Notes under the pieces: generated by a model
Told to the model about the DNA's origin: nothing
Databases searched by the model: none
What the model saw: only the letters and a program-made list of their open reading frames with translations
Made by a program: the position numbers and the translations under genes
In this document: piece after piece, positions 5,783 through 38,539 of the stretch
Numbering within the stretch: position 1 is the stretch's first letter
Layout of the letters: the number at the start of each line of letters is the position of its first letter
From: Minisyncoccia bacterium
Lineage (GTDB): Bacteria; Patescibacteriota; Minisyncoccia; Phycocordibacterales; GWA1-40-21
Assembly: GCA_049287185.1 (NCBI GenBank)
Contig: JBAQFI010000004.1
Coordinates: 8,125 to 72,124 of the forward strand
Length of the DNA stretch: 64,000 nt
Reading direction: 5' to 3'

Positions 5783-5871
5783 GGAGAGTTGGCTGAGTGG
5801 TCGAAAGCGCCTCACTGCTAACGAGGTGTGGGTCTAAAAGCCTACCGTGGGTTCGAATCCCACACTCTCCG
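5783..5871 (+). tRNA. tRNA-Ser (anticodon GCU), long variable arm
   Basis: Acceptor GGAGAGT/ACTCTCC, anticodon loop cuGCUaa, long variable arm, T-arm GTGGG-TTCGAAT-CCCAC, discriminator G. CCA is not encoded. Confidence 0.8.
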
Positions 5872-5882
5872 CATTTAAAAAT

Positions 5883-5906
5883 CCACTGAAACAGTGTGAT
5901 TTTTTA
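5883..5906 (+). terminator. terminator hairpin after tRNA-Ser
   Basis: cactg-aaa-cagtg followed by gattttttat. Confidence 0.5.
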
Positions 5907-5907
5907 T

Positions 5908-6046
5908 GCGGAGAGTAGGAGTGCTGGGGAGCACTCCGTGTGGGATTCGAAGCCTGTTTGAGCATTTTCTTAAGTTTTCTTAAACGAGAAGAAAATCCAA
6001 ACAGGATACTGCTCCTGTAAGGAGAGAAACTCCCACACTCTCCGCC
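5908..6046 (+). ncRNA. tRNA-Ser-derived tRNA-like element (acceptor + T-arm minihelix with an inserted structured domain)
   Basis: gcggagagt...actctccgc pairs like the tRNA-Ser acceptor. An 8-bp hairpin ggagtgct-gggg-agcactcc follows. The stem gtgtggg...cccacac copies the tRNA-Ser T-arm, but its loop (attcgaa) is interrupted by ~80 nt containing nested hairpins (cctgtttg...caaacagg; ttttctt...aagaaaa; ctcc-tgtaa-ggag). Confidence 0.4.
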
Positions 6047-6269
6047 AAATAAAATTCACACGCATGGTGTATATTTTAATAATGAATTTCATTAACCACT
6101 TGAAATAAGTAATTTTTTCTTGTGTATATTGTAAATAAATATTTTTTTAAAAAAACTATGATAGAATGCTCGGGTAATTATTAAGGATTTTATTAACTTG
6201 CCCGAAGAAATTTCATTCTTACGAAATTTGACGGGTATAATCAACCCGCAAAAATTGATGTCTGACTGG

Positions 6270-6305
6270 ATCCCCGCCTGCGCGGGGACGACAATCAGAA
6301 TTGTC
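6270..6305. repeat. REP-like tandem hairpins (family A variant)
   Basis: tccccgc-ctgc-gcgggga followed by cgacaat-cag-a-attgtcg. Same two-hairpin module recurs at 56778-56813 and 56877-56911. Confidence 0.6.
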
Positions 6306-6328
6306 GACTTTACCGGGTAAACAAAACA

Positions 6329-9094
6329 ATGGCAAAAGAAACGAAGTATGTGTATGTTTTTGGAAACAAAAAAGCTGACGGTGATGGTAGTATGAAGCCA
6401 CTTCTGGGTGGAAAGGGTGCTAACTTGGCGGAAATGAGCCGAATTGGTTTACCAGTGCCTCCAGGCTTTACTATTACCACCGAAGTTTGTACTTACTATT
6501 ACAATAATAAGAAAACTTACCCAAAAACTTTAGCTCCAAATGTAAAAAACGGAATTTCCCATATTGAAAAAATCATGGGTGTAAAGTTTGGTGATAAATC
6601 TGCCTTACCACTTCTTGTTTCTGTTCGTTCCGGTGCCCGCGATTCTATGCCAGGTATGATGGATACAATTCTCAATCTTGGTTTGAATGATGAAACTGTA
6701 AAAGCTCTAGCTTTGGCTACCAAGAATGAAAGATTTGCTTGGGACTGTTACCGCCGTTTTATTCAAATGTATGGTGATGTTGTGATGGGAGTGCAAAAAC
6801 GTGAAGGTGAAGATCACGAACCGTTTGAAGTTTTGATTGAAGGTTTGAAACACGAAGTTTACAAGAAAGATATTGATGACTCCAAACTGACTGTTGAGGA
6901 TTTAAAGAAACTCATTACTCGTTTTAAAGCTTTGATTAAAGAGCGTTCTGGTAAAGCTTTTCCTCAAGACCCATGGGAACAACTTTGGGGGGCGACCGGT
7001 GCCGTCTTTGGTTCTTGGATGAACGATCGTGCCAATGTCTATCGCCGAAAATATAATATTCCAACTGAGTGGGGAACTGCGGTTAATGTTCAAGCCATGG
7101 TTTACGGAAATACTGGTGATAATTCTGGTTCCGGTGTGGCTTTTACTCGAAACCCTGCCAACGGTGCGAAAGAATTTTACGGTGAATTTTTGATTAATGC
7201 ACAAGGAGAAGATGTCGTGGCTGGAGTTCGTACTCCAGAGCCTGTCGTTCAGCTCGCCAATTACTTGCCAGCTGCTTTCAAAGAATTAAATAATATTCGA
7301 AATGTTTTAGAGAAACATTTTAAAGATGTTCAAGATATTGAATTTACTATTCAAGATGGAAAAGTTTTCATTTTGCAAACTCGTAATGGTAAAAGAACTG
7401 CGCTCGCTGCCCTCAAGTTCTCCATGGACATGGTGAAGGAAAAACTTATTGATTGGAAAACTGCAGTTCGTCGTAACCCAGCTGAACAACTTGACCAACT
7501 TTTGGCTCCAATTTTTGACCCTAAAGCTGAAAAAAGTGCCAAGGTAATTGCTAAAGGTTTACCAGCCGGCCCAGGTGCGGCTTCCGGAAAAATTTATTTT
7601 AACGCCGACAAAGCTGTTATCGCCGCTGCTAGAGGTGAAAAAGTTTTGCTTGTTCGGGCTGAAACTACTCCAGAAGATTTGCGTGGAATGATTGCCGCTG
7701 AAGGAATTTTAACTGCCAAAGGTGGAGTTAGTTCTCATGCTGCACTAGTCGCTCGTCAAATGGGTAAGGTTTGTGTTTGTGGAGTTTCTGCCTTGTGTAT
7801 TGATTACGCCAAGAAAACTTTGTCCGCTGGTGCTGACTGCCAAGTTTTCAAAGAAGGAGATTCAATTTCTATTAACGGAACTTTGGGTACTGTTTATGCT
7901 GGCCAAATCAAAACTGCTCCATCAGAAATTATTCAGGTTTTGGTTAACAAAACTCTTGATCCAAAGAAAAGCGAAGTTTATCAGATGTTCAGTACTCTCA
8001 TGACTTGGTGTGATAAAGCCGCTAAACTAAAAGTTCGCACTAATGCCGATACTCCTGAGCAAGTCGCTAATGCACTGTCCTTTGGTGCTACTGGAGTCGG
8101 ACTCGTTCGTACCGAACATATGTTCTTCGAAGGCAATCGTATTGACGCTATGCGCGAAATGATTTTAGCAGATAATCTCGAAGCTCGTAAGAAAGCGTTA
8201 GCTAAACTTTTGCCATATCAGAAATCAGATTTCGTTGGAATCTTCAAAACCTTGAAAGGTTACCCAGCTACTATTCGTTTCCTCGATCCACCACTACATG
8301 AATTCTTGCCTCACGAAGACAAAGCGCAAAAAGATTTGTCAGTAAAAATGAAAGTTTCTATTGATAAAATTAAACAACGCATGAAAGAACTCCATGAGTT
8401 CAATCCAATGCTCGGTTTCCGTGGCTGTCGCCTTGGAATTGTTTACCCAGAAATTTCTGAAATGCAGGCCCGTGCTGTTTTTGAAGCCGCAGTTGAAGTG
8501 CAAAAAGCTGGTATCAAAGTTAAACCAGAAGTGATGATTCCTTTGGTTGGTTTCAAAAAAGAATTGGATATTCAAATTGAAGTAGTTAATCGTGTCGCCA
8601 AAGAAGTTATGGCCGAAACCAAAACCAAAATTGATTACATGGTCGGAACTATGATTGAAATTCCTCGTGGAGCCCTGACCGCCGATGAGATTGCCGAAAC
8701 TGCTCAGTTCTTTAGTTTCGGAACTAATGACTTAACTCAGACTTGTCTTGGTATGAGCCGTGATGATGCCGGTTCATTCTTGCCAGCTTATCAGGAGAAC
8801 GAAATTATTAAACAAAATCCTTTTGCTTCTATCGATCAAACCGGAGTTGGTCAGCTTATCAAGATTGCGGTGGAGAAGGGTAATAAGACTCGCCCAGGCA
8901 TCAAGATGGGTATCTGTGGAGAGCACGGTGGTGATCCGGCTAGTATCGCTTTCTGTCACAAGGCTGGACTCACTTATGTTAGTTGTTCACCATTCCGAGT
9001 GCCAGTTGCTCGTTTAGCCGCTGCTCAAGTAGCGATTGAAGAAGAAATTAAAGCTGCCGCCGGAGGAACAAAGAAAGTTGCTAAGAAGAAATAA
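6329..9094 (+). CDS. ppdK: pyruvate, phosphate dikinase
   Basis: 921 aa. Start [12 protein letters not shown]...[28 protein letters not shown], central phosphohistidine domain ([19 protein letters not shown]), C-terminal PEP-utilising TIM barrel. Full-length PPDK architecture. Confidence 0.95.
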
Positions 9095-9106
9095 ACTTAA
9101 CAAATT

Positions 9107-9136
9107 AAAACCACTTTCCTCAGAAAGTGGTTTTTT
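9107..9136 (+). terminator. rho-independent terminator after ppdK
   Basis: aaaaccactttcct-cag-aaagtggtttttt. Confidence 0.75.
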
Positions 9137-9147
9137 GTTGTAAAATT

Positions 9148-9534
9148 TTACCGATATGGGTTTCCTCTCATCTCGTCAGTGACCTCAATGAGCTGTTGGG
9201 GAACGACACCACTGACAATCTCAGCTTCGTTTTCGGCGAAACAAAAATATTGTCCGGCCATTGGGAAATCATGCTCTTTCCACCATTTGGCGGCTTTGGG
9301 TTTCTCCTGACCCAAAATTTGTAGTGCCTGTTTTTGAGGAACACTGAAGCCATAGCGATTGACGCTGGCTTTTTTCTTACTCAGGACACCGCGTTCGCCG
9401 CCACTATCAGGGAAACCTAGATAGTGACAACAGGGAAGGAGAAGTCCTTTCCAAGCTTGGCGAATCTTAAGCGGTGCTTCACCAATAGGAACTTTTATAA
9501 TTCTAATCACTCCGGTTGCTCTGTCTCTTTTCAT
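9148..9534 (-). CDS. conserved hypothetical protein (128 aa)
   Basis: Longest ORF in this interval with good codon periodicity. No motif I can assign. The overlapping + and - ORFs in the track are shorter. Confidence 0.4.
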   Translation of the reverse strand: MKRDRATGVIRIIKVPIGEAPLKIRQAWKGLLLPCCHYLGFPDSGGERGVLSKKKASVNRYGFSVPQKQALQILGQEKPKAAKWWKEHDFPMAGQYFCFAENEAEIVSGVVPQQLIEVTDEMRGNPYR

Positions 9535-9716
9535 AAAATCACCCTTTCTTGTTGTAAGTTTCTGTCTGTCGAAGATATTAGCACAGATTTCAGTATTTAC
9601 CAGAAAATGGGTCCTTAAAAGTCAGCTGTTCCCATAAGGTAGTAGAATATGCTATTATATGAGCTATATTAATAATCACTCTAAACGCGTAAGCGCGAAG
9701 GGTAAACAAAAATAAT

Positions 9717-9974
9717 ATGCCAGCAAAAGCAACCTCAGCCTTTATGAAGCCTATGAATGTCAGCGCCGAATTAGCAGCTGTTGTAGGAAAGGGTCCTATG
9801 CCAAGATCAGAAGTCGTTAAGGCTCTCTGGGTTTATATCAAGAAAGCTAATTTACAAGATCCAAAGAACAAGAGAAACATCAATGCTGATGCTAATCTAA
9901 AGAAAGTTTTCGGTGGAAAGGATGTCGTAAATATGTTTGAAATGACCAAATTGGTTTCTAAACACCTTTCATAA
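9717..9974 (+). CDS. SWIB/MDM2 domain protein
   Basis: SAELAAVVGKGPMPRSEVVKALWVYIKKANLQDPKNKRNINADANLKKVFGGKDVVNMFEMTKLVSKHL matches the SWIB-domain consensus end to end. Confidence 0.8.
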   Translation: MPAKATSAFMKPMNVSAELAAVVGKGPMPRSEVVKALWVYIKKANLQDPKNKRNINADANLKKVFGGKDVVNMFEMTKLVSKHLS

Positions 9975-9994
9975 TTTTCGTTTTTAGAATAAGT

Positions 9995-10023
9995 AAAAAG
10001 ACCCTCATTTTGAGGGTTTTTTT
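9995..10023 (+). terminator. rho-independent terminator
   Basis: aaaagaccctca-tttt-gagggtttttttt. Confidence 0.75.
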
Positions 10024-10145
10024 TAATGCACCCGATGATTTGATTGGGCATAACATAGTGATATAATGAATAAAAGTTGAATAGTCTCATAAATTTAGTT
10101 AATAAACTGAATTTTTTATTAAGTTGATAATTTGTAAATAAAATT

Positions 10146-10919
10146 ATGAATAAAAAAGTATTAAGTATTGTTTTAGTTGCAATTGTAATTGTGGCCGGGG
10201 TCGCATATTACGGCTTTCAAAAAAGCTCTCTTTCTACCGGGATAGATAAAGATAGTGTAATGGGTATGATGAAGGAGAAAGGTGATACTGTTATGGATAA
10301 AGCGGAATATATTAGTAAATGTAAGGAATCTGATTTAGATACACAGGATATGTGTTATGCCTTAGGAGCTCTTTATTATCGAGACGCTAGTTTTTGTGGT
10401 TTGATAAAAAGTGCTGAAACAAAAGGAAACTGTAATGAAGAAAAAATTGAAGAGTGGTATGTCACCATGAAAAAAACTGGGGCCACTGGTTTTGAAAGTC
10501 TAGGTGGTTTGACGGGTCAATTACCAAATGCTGGCGATGGAATTTCTAATGGGGATGAACCATCACCTGCAGATGGTGATAATGAAAAGCCAATAGATTA
10601 TTACAACTCGACTAAGGATATAACGTCACTTTCCTCTGTGGCAAATGAAGTCAAAACCATTCTTGGTGAAGCTTGTGGGGCAGTTAAATTAAAACAAGTA
10701 CTCAAAGATCCAATGTCTAAAGCTGATATCTTTGTTTATGTTTGGAAGGAAGAGCCAACTGCAGAAAATTTAGAGAGTAGCTTTGTAAAAAATGGCTATA
10801 CTATAGAAATGTCTGGCGAGTCGCTTATTGTAAAGAAAGGAGATCTTGCGATCGCTGTTAGTTGGGTGGAAGAAATGGCTAGTCAAGAAATTGGTGTCAC
10901 ACCATTCAGCGACAATTAA
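10146..10919 (+). CDS. hypothetical membrane-anchored/secreted protein
   Basis: N-terminal TM/signal anchor, Cys-containing acidic ectodomain, no known motif. Confidence 0.45.
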   Translation: MNKKVLSIVLVAIVIVAGVAYYGFQKSSLSTGIDKDSVMGMMKEKGDTVMDKAEYISKCKESDLDTQDMCYALGALYYRDASFCGLIKSAETKGNCNEEKIEEWYVTMKKTGATGFESLGGLTGQLPNAGDGISNGDEPSPADGDNEKPIDYYNSTKDITSLSSVANEVKTILGEACGAVKLKQVLKDPMSKADIFVYVWKEEPTAENLESSFVKNGYTIEMSGESLIVKKGDLAIAVSWVEEMASQEIGVTPFSDN

Positions 10920-10936
10920 TTGTAAGAATAATAATT

Positions 10937-11176
10937 ATGACAAAAGAAGAAATATCAAACCTTATTAAGGAATATAATCAAAGACTATTAGCTAGAGGCA
11001 CAACCTTAGAGTTTATAGATTTTGAGGATAATAATCTTGAATTAAAATTTACCTGCCAAGATAAGACAGAGTTTTTAGTTCAAGGGAAAAGAGTGACATT
11101 TGCCGATGAAATTAAAAAAGAAATTGAAAAATACCTCAAAGCCAAGATTAATAAAGCTAAAATAATTTTTTTATAA
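10937..11176 (+). CDS. hypothetical protein (79 aa)
   Basis: Compact ORF tightly spaced with neighbours; K/E-rich. Confidence 0.35.
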   Translation: MTKEEISNLIKEYNQRLLARGTTLEFIDFEDNNLELKFTCQDKTEFLVQGKRVTFADEIKKEIEKYLKAKINKAKIIFL

Positions 11177-11180
11177 AAAT

Positions 11181-12404
11181 ATGATATTCGATGTTCAAAC
11201 CGGGCGTATTGATTTGGCTGTATCTGGAGAAAGTGCTTTTATTGTGAGAAAAGGGAAAAAGATTAAAATTCCTTCAGTTGAAACTAAAGCCAAATTGACT
11301 ACCGAATTATTAAAATCTGATGGCAAGGATATTGTTGAGATGCAAAAGTTTGAGAAAGAATATCCTAAGCTTACGGACGGTGATACGCTTGTGTCCGGTT
11401 CCAAAACCATAATCCGTGTCAGTAGTGATTTTAATGTTGGTAGAGATAAGCCACTAGAAGGTTATAAAAATAATTCTTCAAAAATTGTCAGTATGGGACC
11501 GAACAGTGAAATGGTGGTCAGTGGTTTTGAGACTTGGGACAAAACCGGCAAGGATAAAAAAAGAAATCATGGAGAAATGATAAAAAACATTGAATTAAAA
11601 AAGGGTTTTTTCTCAGTGTCCTATAGTAATACCGATGATATTTTGGTAACACCAATAGCTAATGTAAAATTTCTCGGCTTTGGTGGCTCCGGTGGTGTTT
11701 TTGATGTTTATGAAAATATTTTATATAGCAATGCTGGTGGGGAAAAAGGGGTTGAATACACAAACAAAAGAACCAAAGCTGTATATCTAGCCAAATCAAG
11801 TTCACCACAGGAAATAATTGTAAATGGCAGCGGAATTTATAAAAGAGGGGTGCTGTCAGCTGATGATCTCTTTTCTATTAATAATGGTCTTGGACTCATC
11901 TCATATTTTAGTAAAGTATTAACTAATTCTGCACCAGAAATTGATCCTAAAAAAATGGCGGATTCATATAAAAGCATACCAGATAATATGAATCAGGTAC
12001 TTGGAACATTTGAAATGTTTAGCCAGATGACCCCTGAAGACATGGAGAGGATGATGAAATTAAGTGAGGAGCATGGGGAAAAAATAGATCCTGAAATGAA
12101 GAAAAAAATTCGAGAGCAGATGAAAGAGCTGCCTGAGGCAATGAAAGAAATGCAAAAAGCTGGCTATATGGACCAAATGAAAAAAGCCATAGCGATGAAC
12201 AAAGGTATGATGGAAGGTCTTGGAAATGCCGGTATAGATAGATTAGCCAAGGCCTCTTCTGGCGCCATGAAACAAGTAAAAGATACTCATGGACAATTGG
12301 CGAAAATATATATAGGTGAAGGAGGGAAGTCAGTTGATCTGTCATCATATTTAGAATCACCAAGAAAATACAAGCCTTTAACTGACGCCAAAAAAGTTGC
12401 TTAA
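11181..12404 (+). CDS. hypothetical protein, paralog A (N-terminal beta-rich domain + K/E/M-rich helical tail)
   Basis: 407 aa. N-terminal segment FIVRKGKKIKIPSVE resembles YIKRGTKKVKLPKSS in the downstream ORF. C-terminal 100 aa is low-complexity helical (MERMMKLSEEHGEKIDPEMKKKIREQMKELPEAMKEMQKAGYMDQMKK). Confidence 0.5.
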   Translation: MIFDVQTGRIDLAVSGESAFIVRKGKKIKIPSVETKAKLTTELLKSDGKDIVEMQKFEKEYPKLTDGDTLVSGSKTIIRVSSDFNVGRDKPLEGYKNNSSKIVSMGPNSEMVVSGFETWDKTGKDKKRNHGEMIKNIELKKGFFSVSYSNTDDILVTPIANVKFLGFGGSGGVFDVYENILYSNAGGEKGVEYTNKRTKAVYLAKSSSPQEIIVNGSGIYKRGVLSADDLFSINNGLGLISYFSKVLTNSAPEIDPKKMADSYKSIPDNMNQVLGTFEMFSQMTPEDMERMMKLSEEHGEKIDPEMKKKIREQMKELPEAMKEMQKAGYMDQMKKAIAMNKGMMEGLGNAGIDRLAKASSGAMKQVKDTHGQLAKIYIGEGGKSVDLSSYLESPRKYKPLTDAKKVA

Positions 12405-12413
12405 AATAAAATT

Positions 12414-14057
12414 ATGGCTAAAAAATCTAATGGACAGGAAAAATCTAAAATAGAAAAGAAAACAAAAAGTACTAGCAAAGAAAGTGACGCTGATTTTCTA
12501 AAAAGGATTATAAGTATAAAAGAAAAGGCAATAAAAAAAGCTGGTGAAAATTCGTCGGCTTATATAAAAGAGATGGAAGAAGCCAGGGCTCAAGGAGCAG
12601 GTATCGGGAAAGATTTAGCCGAAAGGGAAGAGTGTGAAAAAATTGTCGAGGAATTCAAAAAGAATCCGCCATTACTAACAATAAGAACCATCGGTGGAAT
12701 ATCAGTGGAAAGATTTTATGATTCTAAAATTCAACCCAAAATAGACTTGCTTAAAAAATATAATTTATCATTTCCCTCTACTCAAAAAAGAACAGCCATA
12801 CAGCCAATTATTTTTGAAACTTTTGGCAACGCCTATATTAAAAGAGGTACTAAAAAAGTCAAATTGCCGAAAAGTTCCGCAGATTTACCTTTTATAATCA
12901 GAGATGGCGACATTATCGGTACTGAAAATAAATCATTCGTCCTGGAATTGAAAGACGAGAATCAGGATGAAGAAAATAACTTCTGGCACATATTTATCTT
13001 CCCTAACAGTGAGTTAAAAATTTCAGTTAAGGAAACTGTCTCACATCCAGCTCCAGCTTATATGATTCCAGAGCAGGTTCCAGAAGCAGTTAAAAGAGGT
13101 TCATCCTCAACCGTTTACGAGCATAAAATTGAAAAAATTGAATTATTAAGCGGACTTTTTAGTGTTAAGGTAAAAAAGAAAGGACGTGATGTAAATAATA
13201 TTGTTAAATTTGCCGCTGGCTTTCCTCAAATAGAATTTCATCAAACTGGTGGGTTAGCCAATGAAATGGTAAAGACTGAAATGGAAAAGGCTGTCAAAGC
13301 TTTGGGTAATAAATATTTAGCTGTCGTTGCCAATCAGCTTAGTGAATTAAAATCTTTTGACAGTAAAAAAGGTAGTGACGAAATAAATGCTCTTATTGAA
13401 TTAAATAAGGATGGTTCTGTCGTGGTGTTTAATACCAGTAATCGTATTTCCATTGGCGGTTCAAATAAACAAACAAAAAAGATTTCGACAGATATGTATA
13501 ATCCAGTAAAAATAACCGCAGTGGGAGGTTCCTTATATGAAACTGACGGCAGTAAAAATCCTGATCCAAGAATATCCGCCATCATGAAAATGTGGTTGAG
13601 CGTTTCTCAATATACTTATTCAATAAACGTAAAAAATGAGGTCGGAATGAAATCAAGTGAAAAATCATTGAACATTGAAGAAGCTGAAAGATTAGCTGAA
13701 TATGCCAAGACACTTGGTGATAAAGACATGGAGAGTGCAGCAAAAGTAATTTTGCAAAGAAAAAAGAATGATGAAGCTATGATGAAAGGTCTGGCTACAC
13801 GGGCAGCTGATAAAGAAGGACAAAGAAGGGAGGCTAAAGAACAATTGAAATTTGCCGAGGAATCTGGTGAAAAAGAATTAATAGAAGTAGCCAAGGCCCA
13901 GCTTAAGGCGATAGATACACCAAATATTGGCCTAAGTGTCGCTAATGCCGAAGCACGAGTTTTACAAATGGCTGAAGACACTCTAAATAAAGTCGGTTCT
14001 TTGGTTGAGGGTAATTTACCTTCATATAATCGTCCGAGTGGAGCCGATGTTGTATAA
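12414..14057 (+). CDS. hypothetical protein, paralog B (same architecture as 11181-12404)
   Basis: 547 aa. Shares the basic N-terminal module and a charged coiled-coil-like C-terminal tail (EAERLAEYAKTLGDKDMESAAKV...EGQRREAKEQLKFAEESGEKELIEVAKAQLKA). Confidence 0.5.
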   Translation: MAKKSNGQEKSKIEKKTKSTSKESDADFLKRIISIKEKAIKKAGENSSAYIKEMEEARAQGAGIGKDLAEREECEKIVEEFKKNPPLLTIRTIGGISVERFYDSKIQPKIDLLKKYNLSFPSTQKRTAIQPIIFETFGNAYIKRGTKKVKLPKSSADLPFIIRDGDIIGTENKSFVLELKDENQDEENNFWHIFIFPNSELKISVKETVSHPAPAYMIPEQVPEAVKRGSSSTVYEHKIEKIELLSGLFSVKVKKKGRDVNNIVKFAAGFPQIEFHQTGGLANEMVKTEMEKAVKALGNKYLAVVANQLSELKSFDSKKGSDEINALIELNKDGSVVVFNTSNRISIGGSNKQTKKISTDMYNPVKITAVGGSLYETDGSKNPDPRISAIMKMWLSVSQYTYSINVKNEVGMKSSEKSLNIEEAERLAEYAKTLGDKDMESAAKVILQRKKNDEAMMKGLATRAADKEGQRREAKEQLKFAEESGEKELIEVAKAQLKAIDTPNIGLSVANAEARVLQMAEDTLNKVGSLVEGNLPSYNRPSGADVV

Positions 14058-14113
14058 TTGTAGTTAAACGGTATAATTTTAAGAGTATATTATTAGTCTA
14101 ATAAAATAAAAAT

Positions 14114-16048: not shown

Positions 16049-16130
16049 CTGTCATTCCCGCGCAGGCGGGAATCCAGGATTAATTGCAATATTTAGAAGA
16101 TCTGGATTCCCGCCTGCGCGGGAATGACAG
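16049..16130. repeat. REP-like element: perfect 29-bp inverted duplication of the family A palindrome
   Basis: ctgtcattcccgcgcaggcgggaatccag (16049-16077) is the exact reverse complement of ctggattcccgcctgcgcgggaatgacag (16102-16130). Each arm is itself palindromic around cccgc-NNNN-gcggg. Confidence 0.8.
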
Positions 16131-26113: not shown

Positions 26114-26147
26114 TACCTTTTTTCTGTCATTCCCGCCTGCGCGGGAA
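26114..26147. repeat. REP-like palindrome (family A)
   Basis: tgtcattcccgc-ctgc-gcgggaatgaca: perfect 12-bp stem, same core as 16049-16130. Confidence 0.8.
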
Positions 26148-26391
26148 TGACAAACAGGGAACAATGTAACTCAAGGCAATATATTGGTATTTCTCCATTT
26201 ATCCACACTTTGTCTTGAATATTTTTATTTTAGTTGTGGTATAATTATTTCACTGACTAATACCCCAAGAGGGTGGCTGGTCGATCCGGTTTTCCGGCAG
26301 TCATAGTCAAGGAAAATTTGCTAGCTTCTCCAAGCTAGACAAAAGTTTTTTAATTAAAAAATTTTTAACAATTAATCGTTCTCTAATTTCA

Positions 26392-28922: not shown

Positions 28923-28927
28923 TTGTT

Positions 28928-29503: not shown

Positions 29504-29509
29504 AATACT

Positions 29510-30082: not shown

Positions 30083-30084
30083 AT

Positions 30085-30630
30085 ATGAAAAAAATACTTA
30101 AAAATAAACATGGCTTTGCTATTTTGTTCGCTATTTTAACCTCCAGTCTTTTACTAATGGTTGGCTTGTCAATTTTTAACATCTCTATAAAGGAGTTAAC
30201 TATTACCAGTTTTAATACTGAGTCCAAAAAAGCTATGTACGCTGCTCAAAGTGGTATGGAGTGCTTTATATACGGAACGTTCAATGCCAAAAAAATATTT
30301 AATTTTAAAACAGGAACTTTTTTAGAGGACGTTCCAGACGTTAATTGCGGAAGCAATACCGTCTTTAGTACCTTTGGTAAGGATCTGCCTTTTATTAGTT
30401 TCTCATTTACTTTAACTGATGATGAATCAAGTTCCTGTGCCATTGTTAAAATAACTGATGATGGGGAGGAAATAAACACAGTCACGGGCAGCACAACCTA
30501 TAAGATAATAGCTGATTCCTATGGTTATAATGCTAATGATTGTTCAAACATTGATTACCTAGAAAATAATACTCGTTTAGTGGAAAAATCCTTTCAGGCA
30601 AATCTAGCTGTGCCACAAGATACTAATTAG
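30085..30630 (+). CDS. PilX-like pilus assembly protein
   Basis: Non-canonical N-terminus HGFAILFAILTSSLLLMVGLSIFNIS typical of the PilX_N domain. Last gene of the pilin block. Confidence 0.5.
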   Translation: MKKILKNKHGFAILFAILTSSLLLMVGLSIFNISIKELTITSFNTESKKAMYAAQSGMECFIYGTFNAKKIFNFKTGTFLEDVPDVNCGSNTVFSTFGKDLPFISFSFTLTDDESSSCAIVKITDDGEEINTVTGSTTYKIIADSYGYNANDCSNIDYLENNTRLVEKSFQANLAVPQDTN

Positions 30631-32655
<2,025 letters not shown>

Positions 32656-32775
32656 TAGTCTTTAATATATAGTCTTTCCTTGAGGAATATAAGGACGCGG
32701 TCGCTGTCTTATTATCCCCAACGAAGGAGAATTTTTTGGCTTTTATTTTAACTATGTTTTTGCTATGATACCTTT

Positions 32776-33057
32776 ATGATCGACATTAAAGAAGTAAAAA
32801 ACCTAGCTGAATTGTCTAGGATTAAGATGACTGAAGAGGAAATGGCTAGTTTTGCTAGTGAAATTGATCCGATTTTAGACTATGTGGCCCAGATTAAAAA
32901 AGTAGTCGGTGATTCTACCGAACGCGAAGTTCCTCCACTTCACAATATTACCCGTAGCGACAATATGCCAAACCCAACTGGTGCTAATACTGAAGTTATA
33001 ACTGCCGAATTTCCACGTCGGGGTGGTAATCTATTAAAAGTAAAGAAAATACTTTAA
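32776..33057 (+). CDS. gatC: Asp/Glu-tRNA amidotransferase subunit C
   Basis: 93 aa, LAELSRIKMTEEEMASFASEIDPILDYV pattern of GatC. Immediately upstream of gatA. Confidence 0.75.
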   Translation: MIDIKEVKNLAELSRIKMTEEEMASFASEIDPILDYVAQIKKVVGDSTEREVPPLHNITRSDNMPNPTGANTEVITAEFPRRGGNLLKVKKIL

Positions 33058-33093
33058 ATAGCAGTTAGTATAAGGAGGACAGAGAGAAATAAA

Positions 33094-34515
33094 ATGGATA
33101 AATTTAAAAACATTACAATTGCTACCGCTCGAAAAGGTTTAGACCAAGGTGATTTTACAGCGACCGATTTGGTAAATTATTATTTAGATAATATTAAAAA
33201 TAAGGATACAGACATCCATGCTTATCTCGAAGTTTTTGCTGATGCTCTAGAACAAGCTAAATTGGCAGATGAAAAAATTGCCAAAGGCGAGAAAGGGGAG
33301 CTTCTTGGTATTCCATTTTCAATAAAAGATAATATTTTGTTCAAAGGACACAAAGCTTCTGCCTCATCTAAAATGTTGGAGAATTATACCGCCACTTATG
33401 ATGCTACTGGTATTAAAAAACTTAAAGACGCTGGTGTCATTATTTTAGGCCGAACCAATATGGATGAATTTGCCATGGGAAGTTCGACTGAAAATTCCGC
33501 GTTTGGCCCAACCAAAAACCCAGTGGATTTGAGCCGAGTGCCAGGTGGTTCTTCTGGTGGGGCGGCTGCCTCAGTGGCAGGAGATATGACCCTAATGGCC
33601 CTAGGAACCGATACAGGAGGCTCTGTCCGTCAACCAGCTAGTTTTTGTGGAGTGGTGGGTTTGATGCCGACTTATGGAGCAATTTCCCGCTATGGTATTA
33701 TGGCCATGGGTTCTTCACTAGATCAGATTGGACCAGTAGGGAAAACTGTTACTGACGTTGAAACCGTCTTTAAAGTTTTGAAAGGTCAGGATAGATATGA
33801 CGGAACCACTTTAGATTATTCTTTCCCAGAAATTTCTAAAGATAAGAAATTAAAAATTGGTGTACCAACCGAAATTTTAAAAATTGATGGCGTTGATGAA
33901 ACTGTCAGAAAGAATTTTGCCGAGGCAATTGAGACTCTGAAAAAAAATGGTCATGAAGTTAAAGATGTCAGTATGCCAAATCTTTCTTATGCTCTATCCG
34001 CTTATTATATTTTGATGCCAGCTGAAGTATCATCTAACTTGGCTCGTTTTGATGGAGTAAAATATGGACTACACAAGGATGGCAAGAATATGGTAGATGA
34101 TTATTTTGAAACTCGCCGCGAAGGCTTTGGTAAGGAAGTTCGCCGTCGTATTTTACTTGGTACTTATGTTTTATCTTCCGGCTATTATGATTCCTATTAC
34201 AACAAAGCCAATATTGTCAGACAATTAATTTCCAAAGATTATGATCAAGCCTTTGAACAGGTAGATGTTATTATCACTCCCACCACTCCAACCCCAGCTT
34301 TTAAATTCGGTGAAAAAACCGCTAATCCTCTCGAAATGTATTTGGCAGATATTTTTACTGTCCCAGTTAACATTGTTGGTGTGCCAGCCATCTCCGTTCC
34401 GTGTGGTTTTAAAGAAGTAGAAGGCAAGAAATTACCTCTAGGCTTGCAGTTTACCGCTCCGAAGATGCGTGAGGATTTATTGTTCCATATTGGTAAGAAT
34501 TTTCTTAACGAATAA
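33094..34515 (+). CDS. gatA: Asp/Glu-tRNA amidotransferase subunit A (amidase signature)
   Basis: Amidase signature GGSSGGAAASVAGD, Ser-cisSer-Lys context, GTDTGGS. Length 473 aa. Confidence 0.9.
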   Translation: MDKFKNITIATARKGLDQGDFTATDLVNYYLDNIKNKDTDIHAYLEVFADALEQAKLADEKIAKGEKGELLGIPFSIKDNILFKGHKASASSKMLENYTATYDATGIKKLKDAGVIILGRTNMDEFAMGSSTENSAFGPTKNPVDLSRVPGGSSGGAAASVAGDMTLMALGTDTGGSVRQPASFCGVVGLMPTYGAISRYGIMAMGSSLDQIGPVGKTVTDVETVFKVLKGQDRYDGTTLDYSFPEISKDKKLKIGVPTEILKIDGVDETVRKNFAEAIETLKKNGHEVKDVSMPNLSYALSAYYILMPAEVSSNLARFDGVKYGLHKDGKNMVDDYFETRREGFGKEVRRRILLGTYVLSSGYYDSYYNKANIVRQLISKDYDQAFEQVDVIITPTTPTPAFKFGEKTANPLEMYLADIFTVPVNIVGVPAISVPCGFKEVEGKKLPLGLQFTAPKMREDLLFHIGKNFLNE

Positions 34516-34565
34516 CTATTTGCATATTCGCATCTTTGTTTAAAAACTGATAAAATATACACAAT

Positions 34566-35189
34566 ATGTTTCCAGGCATTGATACCTTACATTCATATGA
34601 TCTTGTCAGTTTAATTAAGGCAATTTTAGACTGGCTTAGGAAATTTTTGAATGACCCGTCTTGGCTTAAAGCACTGGCAGAGTGGTTTAACATCAACTTT
34701 CCTGAAGTTAGTAATACTATTTTAAACCTAGCCCTCTTTATGTCCCTAGTTTTTTTGTGGGGTGTTATTTATTACTCCTCAAAAATTTATAATTTGCATA
34801 AACACGATAATCTTTTGAAGTATGCCGTGCCACCGGCTGATGAAAATCATGGTCTTAAATTAGCCCCTGATATTATGAAGCAACGCTGGAGCAGGGTAAT
34901 GGAACACATTTCCTCACCGGCTGATAATGACTGGAAATTGGCTATTCTCGAAGCTGATATAATGCTCGATGAGATGTTGGATAGACAAGGTTACCACGGC
35001 GAGAGTATCGGGGATAAGCTGAAGAAAGTAGAAACAGCAGATTTCGATTCTATTAATGAGGCATGGGAGGCACACAAAATTCGTAATCAAATTGCTCACG
35101 AGGGTTCAGCTTTTATGTTGAGTCAGCGACAGGCCAAAGAAACCGTTGCTATGTACGAGAAAGTCTTCAAGGAGTTTAGGATGATTTAA
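34566..35189 (+). CDS. hypothetical membrane protein
   Basis: One central TM (LALFMSLVFLWGVIYY). No motif. Confidence 0.4.
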   Translation: MFPGIDTLHSYDLVSLIKAILDWLRKFLNDPSWLKALAEWFNINFPEVSNTILNLALFMSLVFLWGVIYYSSKIYNLHKHDNLLKYAVPPADENHGLKLAPDIMKQRWSRVMEHISSPADNDWKLAILEADIMLDEMLDRQGYHGESIGDKLKKVETADFDSINEAWEAHKIRNQIAHEGSAFMLSQRQAKETVAMYEKVFKEFRMI

Positions 35190-35202
35190 TCAAAATAATA
35201 GA

Positions 35203-35226
35203 AAATCCCCATGGTAGGGGATTTTC
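35203..35226. terminator. bidirectional terminator hairpin
   Basis: aaaatcccc-atggt-aggggatttt, T/A runs on both sides. It sits between a + CDS and a - tRNA. Confidence 0.65.
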
Positions 35227-35235
35227 AAATTTGTT

Positions 35236-35303
35236 GCGGGGCCTGGAATCGCACCAGGGTCTAGAGGTTATGAGCCTCTCGAGATACTGCTTCTCTACCC
35301 CGC
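35236..35303 (-). tRNA. tRNA with CAU anticodon (Met/fMet/Ile2-type), compact
   Basis: Minus-strand read: GCGGGGU acceptor pairing ACCCCGC, anticodon arm AGAGG-cuCAUaa-CCUCU, T-arm CCUGG-UGCGAUU-CCAGG. Only ~68 nt, with an atypical T-loop and 3-bp D-stem, so boundaries are uncertain. Confidence 0.55.
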
Positions 35304-35407
35304 TATATAACTGCAATATCATATCGCAAAAAAACAAAAATGGCAAGGGACTGAAAATAAGGTTGTTTTTCCTCAAAAAAATGTTATATTAGTTTGGTTC
35401 AAGATAT

Positions 35408-35481
35408 GTCGGCGTAGCTCATCTGGCTAGAGCGTGGGACTCATAAGCCCAAGGTAGATGGTTCAAGTCCATCCGCCGACA
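35408..35481 (+). tRNA. tRNA-Met (CAU) (elongator or Ile2-lysidine type; G1-C72 paired)
   Basis: GUCGGCG acceptor/CGCCGAC, D-arm GCUC-AUCUGGCUA-GAGC, anticodon loop cuCAUaa, T-arm GAUGG-UUCAAGU-CCAUC, discriminator A. Confidence 0.8.
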
Positions 35482-35585
35482 CAATTGCAATGTAAATTTT
35501 CGTGTTTTATTTAAACCTTCCCCTAAGAATTTTTAGTCCTCGAAAGTGGTTAGTATAACTGCCTGTCACGTGATATAATAATTAT

Positions 35586-36260
35586 GTGCCAATCTTTAAA
35601 GATGTTAACAAGGATTTTTTCAAAAAATGGACACCCAATATGTCATATGTTTTGGGTTTTTTCGCAGCTGATGGTTATATTACTTTGAATAAAAGAAATG
35701 CAAATTTCTGGTGTATTCAAATTAAGGACAATAAACTTTTGCAAGAAATAAGAAAAGCAGTTGGCTCAAATCATAAAATTAGCGAGAGGTTTAATAATAA
35801 ATATAAGACTACTTTATATCGTCTTCAGATTGGTAGTAAAGAAATGTGTGATGATTTAAGAAAATTAGGATTTTATGAGGGTAAAACAAAGAACCTATCA
35901 GTACCAAATGTCCCTAGTAAATACTTCAAAGATTTTATTAGGGGATATTTTGATGGTGATGGTAATGTTTGGTCTGGACTTGTACATAAGGAAAGGGCTA
36001 AACCATTATTGACTATACGTTGTGTTTTTACTTCCTGTTCAAAACAGTTCCTTCTCGATATTCATGAACGTTTGTTGTGTTTCGGTGTTTCAGGTGGTGT
36101 TTTGAGTAAGGGTCAAGGTAACTATTATAGACTCACTTATAGCGCAAAAAGTACTTTGATTTTTTATGATTTTGTGTATAATGGTATAGTCAAAGATTCG
36201 AGCGGTTTGCACCTTGAACGAAAAAAAAGAATTTTTGATAAATATAGAATGCAGTTGTAG
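35586..36260 (+). CDS. LAGLIDADG homing endonuclease (double-motif, single-chain)
   Basis: Two LAGLIDADG motifs: LGFFAADGYI and RGYFDGDGNV, about 100 aa apart. The track uses a GTG start at 35586; an in-frame ATG (MSYVLGFF...) at 35640 is an alternative. The stop codon lies inside the tRNA-Asp 5' acceptor stem. Confidence 0.8.
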   Translation: MPIFKDVNKDFFKKWTPNMSYVLGFFAADGYITLNKRNANFWCIQIKDNKLLQEIRKAVGSNHKISERFNNKYKTTLYRLQIGSKEMCDDLRKLGFYEGKTKNLSVPNVPSKYFKDFIRGYFDGDGNVWSGLVHKERAKPLLTIRCVFTSCSKQFLLDIHERLLCFGVSGGVLSKGQGNYYRLTYSAKSTLIFYDFVYNGIVKDSSGLHLERKKRIFDKYRMQL

Positions 36261-36545
36261 CTCAATTGGTTAGAGCACTCGCCTGTAGACGTACGTGCAG
36301 CTTTCCTTCTGAAAGGGGGATTGAAACTCTCTGGGATAACGGTGGAGGCTAAGTTCATCAATTTGGTGAATAAGCGAATACCGTGGGAACCTCAATAATT
36401 TGTTGAGGGCGCCGTAGAGACTAGATACCGGAGTACCTAAATTTGCTTTTAGCAAATATGGTAAAGATATAGTCCACGCCATTATGAAAATATTGGAATT
36501 AGTGCACGCGAGAGGTCGCGGGTTCAAATCCCGTCAACTGCGCCA
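36251..36545 (+). tRNA. tRNA-Asp (GUC) interrupted by a group I intron in the anticodon loop; CCA encoded
   Basis: 5' exon 36251-36286 (GCAGUUG acceptor, D-arm GCUC-AAUUGGUUA-GAGC, CUCGC + cugu). 3' exon 36505-36545 (cac + GCGAG, var AGGUC, T-arm GCGGG-UUCAAAU-CCCGU, CAACUGC, G, CCA). Spliced loop cuGUCac. The arms closely match E. coli tRNA-Asp. Confidence 0.8.
36287..36504 (+). ncRNA. group I self-splicing intron (218 nt, no internal ORF)
   Basis: Exon ...CUGU pairs with IGS gcag (U·G at the 5' splice site, P1). The adjacent cgtg pairs with 3' exon cacg (P10). Conserved R-like gccgtagAGACUAgata and S element AAGAUAUAGUCC are present (P7 strands). The intron ends in G (omega G) at 36504. 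Confidence 0.8.
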
Positions 36546-36583
36546 AAATTAAACCGCCTTGTGCGGTTTTAATTTTGGCGCAG
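36541..36583 (+). terminator. long terminator hairpin incorporating the tRNA-Asp CCA end
   Basis: gcgccaaaattaaaccgc-cttgt-gcggttttaattttggcgc (18-bp stem). Confidence 0.7.
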
Positions 36584-36824
36584 TAAAACCAGTTTGAGAA
36601 AACTGGTTTTGTTCATTTGAAAATGAACTGACGGGATTTGAAAGACGGAACGCACCGAACGAAGTGAGGTCTGAATCTAGCAAGATTCAGAAGTGAGTCG
36701 GGGTCGAGAGTTCTGACGAGTGACGACGAGGAAGAAACTCGTGACCAATCATCCCGTCACTATTATCCTAATTACAAAATATCCAAAGAAGGGACTGACC
36801 CTGTAAGGGTCAAATCCCGTCAAC
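36546..36824 (+). other. structured ~280-bp insert downstream of tRNA-Asp, closed by a direct repeat of the tRNA 3' end
   Basis: gggtcaaatcccgtcaac (36807-36824) matches tRNA-Asp 3' end gggttcaaatcccgtcaac (36519-36537) with one deletion. The interior has multiple hairpins (aaccagtttgag...ctggtt; ctgaatct...attcag; tgacggga...tcccgtca closing a ~115-nt domain). Confidence 0.5.
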
Positions 36825-36893
36825 CTGTTATTTTCAAAATTCCACATTTAATTTTCATCTCGTCAATATTTTTCTTAAACTATTTACGTTATA

Positions 36894-37193
36894 ATGCTTT
36901 CTGTTATGTTTAATTTCTTTAAGAAAAAAACCCCGAAGAGTATTGTTAAGAAACAAATCAAATCCGGTCTAATTTCTGCCGAGCAAGTTATTAATGAAAT
37001 ACCTAAAACAGATTTAGATAAAATGGGTGGTATAAAAGGTCTACTAGATCAAACAAAAGTTAATATTGCTGATTCCTTGGCCACTTATGGTTTTACTTAT
37101 GAATCTAAAATCATTATCAGTTTAGATACTAAATCATTTTCAAATATCAAGCAGTTTGAGCGCAATATCTGGAGAGCAGTTGGAACCTGCTAG
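36894..37193 (+). CDS. hypothetical protein (99 aa)
   Basis: ORF with RBS-like spacing. No motif. Confidence 0.35.
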   Translation: MLSVMFNFFKKKTPKSIVKKQIKSGLISAEQVINEIPKTDLDKMGGIKGLLDQTKVNIADSLATYGFTYESKIIISLDTKSFSNIKQFERNIWRAVGTC

Positions 37194-37431
37194 ATCTCCC
37201 CTGCTTATTAATAGGGAATAGTATGTAATTGACGGTTTTTTGTTGTAGAACACATATTTATAGGTGTCAATATATCTATTGACAAATAAGGTAAACTATG
37301 CTACCATTAATTTAGATTGCCATTTAACATATATAACTAAAATATCAACGAACTTATGAAAGGCTGAGAAATACGGCTCTAATTCAAAACCAATCCACAT
37401 CTGGGGTTGTGGACAAATAGAAGAGGCTAAT

Positions 37432-38016
37432 ATGAAATTGTTTACTATGCTGGTAATTATCGTTGCCATGATGTCCACAAACATCTGGGCGAAACCAACA
37501 AATGAAACAAATGAAAAGCTATCTTCCGATACAGTGTATCGGATGGGAATAGTCGAATCAGGATGGAAGGATGGTAGTGTAGGTGACAAAAAGCTTAAAG
37601 AAAAAGCCTATGGTGCCCTCCAGATCAGACAGCCAGCTCTCACTGATGTGAATAAGAAGCTTGGGACGAAATACACGAGCCTTGATTGCATCAATTCGAG
37701 AGAGGTTAGTATCACGGTCGCTATAGAATATACTTCTAAGTATGCGACTGAAAGTCACTTGGGTAGAAAACCTACTCAGAGAGATATGGTGCTTATCTAC
37801 AATGGTGGACCGTGTGCAGCGTTTGAAAACGGTGCAATTGATAAACTTGGCCACCTACCGAAAGATCCTAAGATGGCGGCAAGGGTAAAACTTTGTCAGA
37901 GAAACGCCAGGATCTACGCTCAGAAAGTATTCAGTGTTCCATTGTCTTCTGAGCGAATGGAAAGAGAGGTTCTATGTTACGTTGGTATAGAAAAATTTGG
38001 AAGACCGAAATCATGA
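37432..38016 (+). CDS. secreted lytic transglycosylase-like protein (SLT domain)
   Basis: Signal peptide MKLFTMLVIIVAMMSTNIWA. Catalytic Glu context GIVESGW and AYGALQIRQ (SLT family-1 GLMQ-type motif). Confidence 0.5.
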   Translation: MKLFTMLVIIVAMMSTNIWAKPTNETNEKLSSDTVYRMGIVESGWKDGSVGDKKLKEKAYGALQIRQPALTDVNKKLGTKYTSLDCINSREVSITVAIEYTSKYATESHLGRKPTQRDMVLIYNGGPCAAFENGAIDKLGHLPKDPKMAARVKLCQRNARIYAQKVFSVPLSSERMEREVLCYVGIEKFGRPKS

Positions 38017-38157
38017 ACTTCCAATAAAAACGCTAAAGACGCATCTCCTCAAGGGTGCGTCTTTTTTAATTATTAAAGATTGAAAAAATTTAAGAAATAG
38101 GCTATTATCATCACGTACCAAATTACTGATTTTATATTAGTAAAACTGCCGTTGTAG

Positions 38158-38206
38158 CTGTCTTGGTAGCTCGATAAGTCGCACGCCGTTGTAGCTGTCT
38201 TGGTAG
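38158..38206 (+). repeat. two tandem partial copies of the tRNA-Thr 5' end
   Basis: gccgttgtagctgtcttggtag at 38158 and again at 38185, versus the genuine 5' end gccgttgtagctcagttggtag at 38224. Each copy is followed by ~..gtcg(a)..cac. Confidence 0.6.
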
Positions 38207-38223
38207 ATAAAGAAGTCGATCAC

Positions 38224-38299
38224 GCCGTTGTAGCTCAGTTGGTAGAGCACGTCATTGGTAATGACGAGGTCACCAGTTCAATCCTGGTCAACGGCTCCA
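38224..38299 (+). tRNA. tRNA-Thr (GGU), CCA encoded
   Basis: GCCGUUG/CAACGGC acceptor, D-arm GCUC-AGUUGGUA-GAGC, anticodon arm CGUCA-uuGGUaa-UGACG, T-arm CACCA-GUUCAAU-CCUGG... discriminator U, CCA. Confidence 0.85.
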
Positions 38300-38344
38300 A
38301 AAATAAAATCGCTCAATAAGCGATTTTATTTTTGGAGCCGTTGA
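38288..38344. terminator. 26-bp perfect inverted repeat that includes the last 12 nt of tRNA-Thr (terminator / inverted tRNA 3'-end copy)
   Basis: tcaacggctccaaaaataaaatcgct (38288-38313), caata loop, then agcgattttatttttggagccgttga (38319-38344), the exact reverse complement. Followed by hairpin gtatgcaaat-tt-atttgcatac and ccaggattgaa (reverse complement of the T-loop region). Confidence 0.7.
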
Positions 38345-38539
38345 AGTATGCAAATTTATTTGCATACGTCCAGGATTGAAAGGCACAGCGATGTTTTTCG
38401 AACCACCAGCGAGAAAAACCGCGAGCCGGGGTCGCGAGCACCTACATATTTTGACAGAATATAATTCTGTCAAAATATTTAGTGACTCGAGACCAATCAG
38501 ACGAGTCTTCGAGTCTCCTGGTCAACGTTTTATCTGTTG

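Follow-up and report, generated by a model that had tools for sequence, protein, structure and literature searches.

Small gene-less elements behind tRNA genes in a Patescibacteria lineage: probable insertion elements that duplicate the tRNA 3' end

The 3' ends of tRNA genes are classic landing sites of large integrative elements, and the classical footprint of a tyrosine integrase is a direct repeat of the tRNA 3' segment that ends at the tRNA end. For casposases, a 15-bp segment was found to be duplicated beside the T-loop-encoding part of a tRNA gene, and tandem polar insertions were predicted (PMC5137440). Here we analysed a stretch of 64,000 nucleotides from a Minisyncoccia bacterium (GenBank assembly GCA_049287185.1, contig JBAQFI010000004.1, positions 8,125 to 72,124; hereafter the window), in which the genes for tRNA-Ser, tRNA-Asp and tRNA-Thr(GGU) are each followed by a short, hairpin-rich insert that is closed by a repeat of the 3' end of that same tRNA. 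The finding is real, non-random and recurrent, and it is best described as a miniature tRNA-targeting insertion element that would be served by a trans-acting enzyme. In detail, we lean towards reading the inserts as non-autonomous insertion elements of ~150–290 bp without an open reading frame (ORF), specific for tRNA 3' ends in a lineage of Patescibacteria (Minisyncoccia/Paceibacteria), which duplicate their tRNA target. To our knowledge, no family of gene-less elements of 150–290 bp at tRNA 3' ends has been described, nor are we aware of any report in which a conserved scaffold alternates with sequences matched to an individual tRNA. Nothing comparable was found in Rfam, in phage and plasmid collections or in the literature searched.

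An earlier note on this DNA, made from its letters alone, had reported direct repeats of the tRNA 3' end at the three genes, and all three repeats exist. Behind tRNA-Ser, TCCCACACTCTCCGC at 5858–5872 occurs again at 6031–6045 (15 nt); the 14-mer given in the note is thus a true repeat, with its second copy at 6032–6045, one base off the reported 6033–6046. Behind tRNA-Asp, GGTTCAAATCCCGTCAAC at 36521–36538 returns as GGGTCAAATCCCGTCAAC at 36807–36824 with one base deleted, and an additional copy, ATCCCGTCA, is located at 36751–36759. Behind tRNA-Thr(GGU), TCCTGGTCAACG at 38282–38293 is found again at 38516–38527. Significance was assessed with 5000 shuffles of each 300-nt stretch downstream of a tRNA. 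The shuffles essentially never produced such repeats: the observed lengths of the direct and inverted matches were reached 0–2 times, and a direct and an inverted match both of at least 9 nt were obtained in 0–4 of 5000. The inverted copy of the 3' end, previously noticed in the Thr interval, is indeed present there, and it is present in the other two inserts as well.

All three window inserts have the same order: tRNA, a hairpin designated hp0, an inverted copy of the acceptor 3' strand, a hairpin designated hp1, an inverted T-part, a backbone and the direct repeat. hp0 is terminator-like and often bidirectional, and the inverted acceptor copy is continuous with its palindrome. hp1 consists of one or two extra perfect hairpins, and the inverted T-part covers the T-stem 3' strand and the entire T-loop. 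This alternation of conserved scaffold hairpins with tRNA-complementary segments is the most unusual feature of the inserts and had escaped the earlier note. Backbones fall into types A, B and C, whose motifs are given with the relatives below. The insert behind tRNA-Thr(GGU) is of type A:

38224–38299, plus strand: tRNA-Thr(GGU), CCA encoded
38300–38332, plus strand: Thr hp0
38333–38344, plus strand: inverted Thr acceptor 3' strand including CCA (TGGAGCCGTTGA)
38346–38367, plus strand: Thr hp1
38370–38380, plus strand: inverted copy of Thr positions 54–64 (CCAGGATTGAA)
38381–38515, plus strand: Thr type A backbone with S1, S2 (GGGGTCG at 38428 to GAGACC at 38494) and a small hairpin (38496–38515)
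38516–38527, plus strand: Thr direct repeat, tRNA-Thr positions 59–70

Here hp0 is part of a perfect palindrome (38288–38344, 26-nt arms) in which the tRNA 3' end is included. The insert behind tRNA-Ser has a type B backbone:

5783–5872, plus strand: tRNA-Ser(GCU), target of the type B element (ARAGORN; Rfam tRNA, 58.7 bits)
5873–5905, plus strand: Ser hp0, a terminator-like bidirectional hairpin directly 3' of the tRNA (two-strand terminator scan; inverted repeat)
5906–5916, plus strand: inverted tRNA-Ser acceptor 3' strand and flank (complement of positions 66–76)
5918–5937, plus strand: Ser hp1, a perfect 8-bp hairpin inside the inverted copy, dividing it
5938–5951, plus strand: inverted tRNA-Ser T-loop and T-stem 3' strand (complement of 54–67)
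5953–6030, plus strand: Ser type B backbone, with a long hairpin (5953–6005), ATACTG, a TGTAA-loop hairpin (6012–6024) and AGAAAC (fold z = −7.2)
6031–6045, plus strand: Ser direct repeat, 15 nt, tRNA-Ser positions 60–74

The insert behind tRNA-Asp is composite; a complete type A element is followed by a left-truncated type B tail with a repeat of its own:

36251–36545, plus strand: tRNA-Asp(GUC), CCA encoded, with exons 36251–36286 and 36505–36545
36546–36575, plus strand: Asp hp0
36576–36584, plus strand: inverted Asp acceptor 3' strand including CCA (TGGCGCAGT)
36585–36628, plus strand: Asp hp1 position, with two hairpins (36585–36610 and 36611–36628)
36629–36642, plus strand: inverted Asp T-loop and T-stem 3' strand (TGACGGGATTTGAA)
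36643–36750, plus strand: Asp type A backbone, with S1 (36670–36691) and S2 (36699–36746, GGGGTCG...GTGACC)
36751–36759, plus strand: first Asp direct repeat (ATCCCGTCA), closing the type A element
36760–36809, plus strand: left-truncated type B tail, ATCCAAAGAAGGGACTG and then a TGTAA-loop hairpin
36810–36824, plus strand: second Asp direct repeat (TCAAATCCCGTCAAC)

The window is a stretch of bacterial chromosome (G+C ~36%) with housekeeping genes for PPDK, GatA, RF2, FtsEX, CTP synthase, GltX, LigA and RNase J and a type IV pilus cluster. Relatives identified through RF2 were metagenome-assembled genomes of Patescibacteria (Paceibacterota/Parcubacteria), with protein identities of 57–81%. 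Two proteins encoded in the window matched those of an NCBI metagenome-assembled genome labelled 'Minisyncoccia bacterium' at 99–100% identity. We scanned every tRNA in ~450 kb of related contigs (denoted by L numbers) for its own 3' end in both an inverted and a direct copy, and a second scan was run with the type A motif GGGGTCG...GTGAC. At least 13 further elements were detected behind Thr, Asp, Gln and Met tRNAs, namely at Thr(GGU) of L001, L010 and L014, at Gln of L002, L019 and L027, at Asp of L019 and L018, and at all five tRNAs of L064 (Met(−), Met(+), Asp, Thr(GGU) and Thr(CGU)). Partial copies were found at contig ends (L013, L066), and L014 contained an orphan remnant with a tRNA-Asp-like repeat.

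The same anatomy was observed in 16 elements at six tRNA species (Ser, Asp, Thr(GGU), Thr(CGU), Gln and two Met), always in the tRNA sense and at a size of ~150–290 bp. Numbered as in tRNA, the inverted T-part corresponds in most elements to the complement of 54–64. The inverted acceptor part has its start at 65 or 66, passes the tRNA end and reaches into the flank, to position 84 at most, so that hp1 always splits the inverted copy between positions 64 and 65. The direct repeat starts within the T-loop at a position that depends on the backbone, position 56 in type A and position 60 in types B and C. It was exactly 60–74 (15 nt) in three of the four B and C elements (window Ser, L002 Gln and L019 Gln), and 56–75 or 56–76 (20–21 nt) in the type A elements of L027 Gln, L064 Met(+) and L064 Thr(CGU). 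The remaining type A copies have shorter exact matches, their left edge being blurred by mismatches. At the other side, the repeat ends about one base beyond the tRNA (at its end or a few bases from it), and the sequence beyond differs from that after the tRNA. The insertion lies immediately behind the tRNA gene, the tRNA is left intact, and the target segment (15 or 19–21 nt) is duplicated. CCA was present in the distal repeat although the gene lacks it in two of ~8 elements, which was not significant.

Backbones are common to different loci, which bears out the earlier proposal that the inserts form a family. Type A consists of S1 and S2, with GGGGTCG...GTGACC at the base of S2; a variant in L001 and L010 has AAGGGGTCGGGAAA and GTGAGCGAAGCGA in common. 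Type B consists of a long hairpin, (A)TACTG and a TGTAA-loop hairpin, whose stem covaries (ctcc/ggag, accc/gggt, ccca/tggg); the motif of the Ser backbone is common to the L002 Gln element and the Asp tail. Type C, found in L019, has CGGAGC...GCGAGGCGGTGCCyAGAC in common. The backbone does not follow the tRNA: behind tRNA-Gln it was A, B or C in three different genomes, and in L019 type C stands behind Gln as well as Asp. The Thr(GGU) backbone of the window is 85% identical to that of L064 Met(−) and 80% to that of L014 Thr(GGU). The hp1 sequence GCAAAT...ATTTGC is common to window Thr and L064 Met(−), and the hp1 loop AAACTGCTTT is common to L014 Thr(GGU), L064 Thr(GGU) and L064 Thr(CGU). hp1, too, is part of the scaffold.

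Elements were present at a site in some genomes and absent in others. The Thr(GGU) site is filled in the window, L014, L064, L001 and L010 and empty in L066, L015, L018 and many others, in which the spacer to the next tRNA is only 11–41 nt. L064 has elements at both tRNA-Met genes and at tRNA-Thr(CGU), sites that are empty in the window; overall, three of seven tRNAs are occupied in the window and five of five in L064. At tRNA-Met(−), an exact empty/filled pair with conserved flanks was obtained. The window tRNA is directly followed by the terminator AAATTTGAAAATCCCCTACCATGGGGATTTTC, whereas in L064 a 200-nt element intervenes, and the same terminator comes after its distal repeat, AGGCCCCGCAACAATT. 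Recent change was seen in strain L013, 97.7% identical to the window, which has a different stack behind tRNA-Asp, with two extra 'tail + repeat' units. No locus pair was obtained for tRNA-Ser, for which orthologues were sought through the neighbouring Na/Ca-exchanger gene, as synteny was not kept in relatives. By comparison of the loci, the data show that elements have apparently been put behind tRNA genes repeatedly and are absent from the orthologous site in some close relatives. The earlier note had suggested looking for empty sites, and had held that their absence from all relatives would speak against insertion; since presence/absence polymorphism was found, that objection does not apply.

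The inserts fold far better than their shuffles (z = −6.3 for Asp, −7.3 for Thr and −7.2 for Ser), and in the predicted folds the inverted copy pairs with the direct repeat. Pairs of S2 were kept through changes on both sides in 9 of 24 cases in the long subfamily and 11 of 17 in the short subfamily, and loops are conserved, for example TGACGAC and GAGCGACGGCGAGG. At the base of S2, 10 of 11 type A elements have G-T(U) as the fifth pair. In nine of ten elements, the tRNA-sense strand, which GC skew marks as the lagging-strand template in the window, folds better than the opposite strand. We conclude that the fold of the tRNA-sense strand is maintained, acting as RNA or as single-stranded DNA.

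The scaffold (hp1, S1 and S2) is inherited as a unit, and the three interleaved segments match the upstream tRNA; the segments must therefore be templated on the target or corrected against it. In the mechanism that we propose, the top strand of the element (single-stranded DNA or RNA) would fold, and its complementary segments would pair with the tRNA-derived segment, giving a three-way junction. A recombinase or nuclease encoded elsewhere would then act on this folded, target-matched structure, by a logic that may resemble that of folded att sites (integron attC, CTX-phage attP) or of the casposase/Cas1 reaction. New copies would stack beside the tRNA, older ones may persist as truncated 'tail + repeat' units, and recombination between the repeats could remove an element and restore the empty site. 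A stronger version, which we offer only tentatively, is that the elements are nucleic-acid-guided. The internal antisense segments of the scaffold (complement of 54–64 and of 65–76 or beyond) would pair with the tRNA gene strand or the tRNA, choose the site and be rewritten at each move, which would make this an ORF-less programmable element with its enzyme in trans.

Several results weigh against reading the inserts as insertion elements. No recombinase, transposase, Cas1 or reverse transcriptase is encoded next to any element, and no integrase was found in or near one. Among ~50 window ORFs scanned, there was no tyrosine or serine integrase, Phage_integrase domain, Cas1, DEDD recombinase or reverse transcriptase; the sole transposase is an IS200-like Y1 gene (62276–62977), whose flanking hairpins show no relation to the hairpins of the elements. 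Viral contigs, phages and plasmids yielded no circular, free or autonomous form. Motif scans (types A, B and C) of viral contigs gave chance matches in GC-rich phages only, one of them on an unrelated tRNA-Thr, and blastn against phage and plasmid collections gave no match. The copies are not near-identical; the best backbone identity is 85%, and no further copies were found when the inserts were compared by blastn with the window and every locus, which lends no support to a recent transposition burst. The rewriting of the three target-matching segments behind a new tRNA is left unexplained. The conserved S2 wobble pair and the more favourable fold of the tRNA-sense strand are as compatible with a selected RNA as with single-stranded DNA, and gene conversion among long-resident elements, together with loss via the repeats, could mimic part of the apparent mobility.

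Compared with the described systems, the tRNA islands of tyrosine recombinases and their integrase-less, cis-mobilisable derivatives likewise have flanking direct repeats of the tRNA 3' segment, an intact or reconstituted tRNA and tandem accretion. Unlike these islands, our elements carry no integrase, are 10–100 times smaller and hold a split inverted copy of the target, and one scaffold family serves at least six tRNAs. The Aciduliprofundum boonei casposon, whose reaction is related here to CRISPR spacer integration by Cas1, also makes a 15-bp duplication at a tRNA gene 3' end, at a site set by the adjacent T-loop-encoding palindrome. The 15-nt duplications of our B and C elements likewise follow directly after the T-loop, and the tail units stacked behind tRNA-Asp recall the expected tandem polar accumulation. 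The elements differ from casposons in that they have no terminal inverted repeats, no ORFs and no Cas1/PolB (nor was Cas1 among the scanned window ORFs), are 150–290 bp rather than several kb long and, in type A, duplicate 19–21 nt; casposons, for their part, have no internal copy complementary to the target. The geometry of the duplication comes closest to casposase/Cas1 integration, whose target is made up of the T-loop-encoding segment of a tRNA gene together with the 15 bp that are duplicated (PMC5137440), and the att-type identity block of a tyrosine recombinase would also be compatible. Neither model explains the split inverted copy.

For that copy, the likeness lies elsewhere. The elements have in common with integron attC and CTX-phage attP(+) sites the order direct copy, inverted copy, structured loop, direct copy, as well as a conserved structure with free stem sequence and an extrahelical part (hp1) on one stem strand. 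The paired boxes of the elements are tRNA-specific instead of the conserved GTTRRRY (R''/R' RYYYAAC/GTTRRRY) or a dif core; the elements have no cassette ORF and no link to IntI or Xer, and no integrase was found in the window scan. In its arrangement, the split inverted copy thus appears to resemble folded single-strand sites such as integron attC and CTX-phage attP. The guide sequences of IS200/IS605 and the bridge RNA of IS110 also interleave a conserved scaffold with short target-matching segments, direct and complementary. The matches in our elements are much longer (11 + 10–20 + 15–20 nt), the target is duplicated, and no transposase or recombinase is adjacent; in particular, no DEDD recombinase gene or other ORF lies in or next to them, unlike in IS110. 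PATE, palindromic elements derived from IS200/IS605, insert without target duplication, whereas our elements have duplications of 9–25 nt, and the Y1_Tnp hairpins of the window are unrelated to them.

The earlier note had also offered miniature inverted-repeat transposable elements (MITEs) as a description. Like MITEs and the REP/BIME, Correia and RPE families, the elements are small, non-coding, hairpin-rich, intergenic and presence/absence polymorphic. They have, however, no element-wide terminal inverted repeats: the left ends (the A-rich start of hp0) and the right ends (GTGAC, AGAAAC and others) are not complementary, and the inverted pair is an internal copy versus the target copy. Their copy number is low, the copies are divergent (at best 85% identical), no parent element was found, and they are tied strictly to tRNA 3' ends with tRNA-matched sequence. 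The suggestion that the inserts are too small to be autonomous stands, and no ORF was found inside any element.

Other explanations place the origin of the inserts outside a mobile family of this kind. That they are decayed attL...attR scars of larger, integrase-carrying islands or prophages in tRNA 3' ends, with the interior lost, had been put forward before; we consider it improbable. The repeats do have the classical tyrosine-integrase footprint, several of them are stacked behind tRNA-Asp, where in L064 the gene for a 439-aa protein lies between two repeat copies, and related genomes such as L067 have genes for tyrosine and serine recombinases. Random deletions at independent loci would not be expected to yield 16 elements with one fixed anatomy in a narrow size range, or hairpins maintained by compensatory change. 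No integrase fragments were found in or beside the elements, and known attP arms show no inverted copy that is divided by hp1. No tRNA-end repeat was found more than 600 nt downstream at any locus, and therefore no large islands were seen. Still less probable, to the point of being barely credible, is a local origin without any mobile element, in which replication switched template at the palindromic terminator and copied the tRNA 3' end backwards, and re-annealing at the quasi-palindromic T-arm then copied it forwards. Such an event would account for an inverted copy that is continuous with the hp0 palindrome via the tRNA flank (to position 84) and ends at the start of the T-loop, and for a B/C direct repeat that starts at the point from which a strand re-annealed on the T-arm would continue; moreover, this genome ordinarily has long perfect palindromes as its terminators. 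It cannot produce hp1, S1 and S2 sequences that are homologous across different tRNAs and genomes, and the break made by hp1 in the inverted copy is at a constant position. We also tried hp0 as a duplicate of the original terminator and rejected it: self-pairs scored no higher than cross-pairs, and hp0 resembled the terminator that follows the direct repeat no more closely than it did unrelated ones. An intermediate with the inverted copy but without the backbone was not seen in the scanned loci. Template switching as the whole explanation was rejected on the cross-tRNA backbone homology and on an hp0 that is not copied from the local terminator.

A functional RNA has to be weighed differently. 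In a transcript made together with the tRNA or after it, the inverted and direct copies would form a tRNA-like stack of acceptor and T-stem with extra arms, to be excised by tRNA-processing enzymes or to act on the cognate tRNA, for instance as antisense to 54–76. We regard this account as doubtful in itself, and a processed tRNA-like RNA role is a serious alternative or complement to insertion. It is favoured by the constant tRNA-sense orientation, by the better folding of that strand, by the conserved G-U pair of S2 with its covarying stems and conserved loops, and by a topology that matches a tRNA (5' acceptor strand, hairpin, 5' T-stem strand, ..., 3' T-stem strand, 3' acceptor strand). 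The terminator hairpin is missing from the L001 element, and the tRNAs on either side of it are 11–41 nt apart in relatives, so that its co-transcription with them is probable. In most elements, however, a terminator-like hairpin separates the tRNA from the rest, G-U totals are low and equal by strand (22 of 660 versus 21 of 647 pairs), and the truncated tail units stacked behind tRNA-Asp do not fit. The presence/absence among close relatives and the uneven occupancy of the window and L064 speak against an essential function. In Rfam 15, searched with gathering as well as relaxed thresholds, only tRNA and Intron_gpI were matched, with the inserts uncovered at E up to 10; weak miRNA and IS605-orfB-II matches were dismissed as hairpin noise. 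As an RNA function leaves the placement behind different tRNAs unexplained, it complements an insertion mechanism and does not replace it.

The elements bear on genome evolution, in that they concern the tolerance of selfish DNA by very small genomes. If the antisense segments act as guides, they are a candidate new way of target-site selection. For the annotation of Patescibacteria, they add to the introns and free-standing homing-endonuclease genes at tRNA loci that confuse tRNA callers.

The tRNA-Asp gene of the window, named as such in the earlier note, is a case of this kind. It is real, and it is split by a group I intron (36287–36504) in the anticodon loop, between positions 35 and 36, because of which ARAGORN misses it. 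The intron matched Rfam Intron_gpI with 43.5 bits (below the gathering score of 50; E = 4e-9), and the exon junction, CCTGT/CACGCGAG, was set by comparison with the intron-less orthologue of L064, which ARAGORN calls. The same 35/36 intron site was recently reported in tRNA-Asp of Patescibacteria, where nothing 3' of the tRNAs is mentioned (PMC13011429). A tmRNA identity for 36400–36545 was rejected, the region being group I intron within tRNA-Asp. In L066 it is instead tRNA-Thr(GGU) that has an intron (~200 nt) in its anticodon loop. A free-standing LAGLIDADG homing-endonuclease ORF (35586–36260), which L064 lacks, has its 3' end inside the 5' acceptor strand of tRNA-Asp. Upstream of this ORF, at 35549–35577, is a fragment resembling the D/anticodon arm of an intron-less tRNA-Asp (TGGTTAGTATAACTGCCTGTCACGTG). 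In the Asp backbone, a hammerhead-like CUGACGAG...GAAAC was considered and dropped, as stem II was unsupported and Rfam gave no match. The 439-aa protein encoded between the repeat copies behind tRNA-Asp in L064 (2462–3781) has a hydrolase-like GxSxG motif and matched neither Pfam nor PHROG; it was rejected as a recombinase candidate. L013 contains a strain-specific ORF (1468–2052) after a 194-aa gene, with a weak helix-turn-helix match and a LAGLIDADG-like motif.

Near the Thr genes, the first 22 nt of tRNA-Thr(GGU) recur as two partial copies in tandem at 38148–38169 and 38185–38206 (period 37/39), between a predicted promoter and the gene. One such partial 5' copy was found in L064 and none in L014 or L066. 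tRNA-Thr(CGU) (38539–38612) is inverted relative to prfB in the window and co-oriented with prfB in all relatives, and the breakpoint of this inversion cuts short the direct repeat of the Thr(GGU) element. The adjacent RF2 (prfB) ORF (38857–39738) begins at position 82 of the PCRF profile, as expected if the N-terminal part lies in another frame (programmed frameshift).

Elsewhere in the window, the IS200-like element at 62249–63037 has its Y1_Tnp ORF between two identical hairpins in the same orientation (CATCGTGAGGC-AAG-GCCTCACGATG). The type A motif GACCAATCA occurs twice on the minus strand in a DsbD-like ORF (49562–49570 and 49655–49663), probably by chance or as a protein repeat. A ThyX-like ORF (46245–47621) encodes 458 aa, of which only residues 18–204 form the Thy1 domain. 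A REP-like palindrome, ATTCCCGC-N4-GCGGGAAT, is present in three intergenic copies at 16054–16073, 16106–16125 and 26125–26152.

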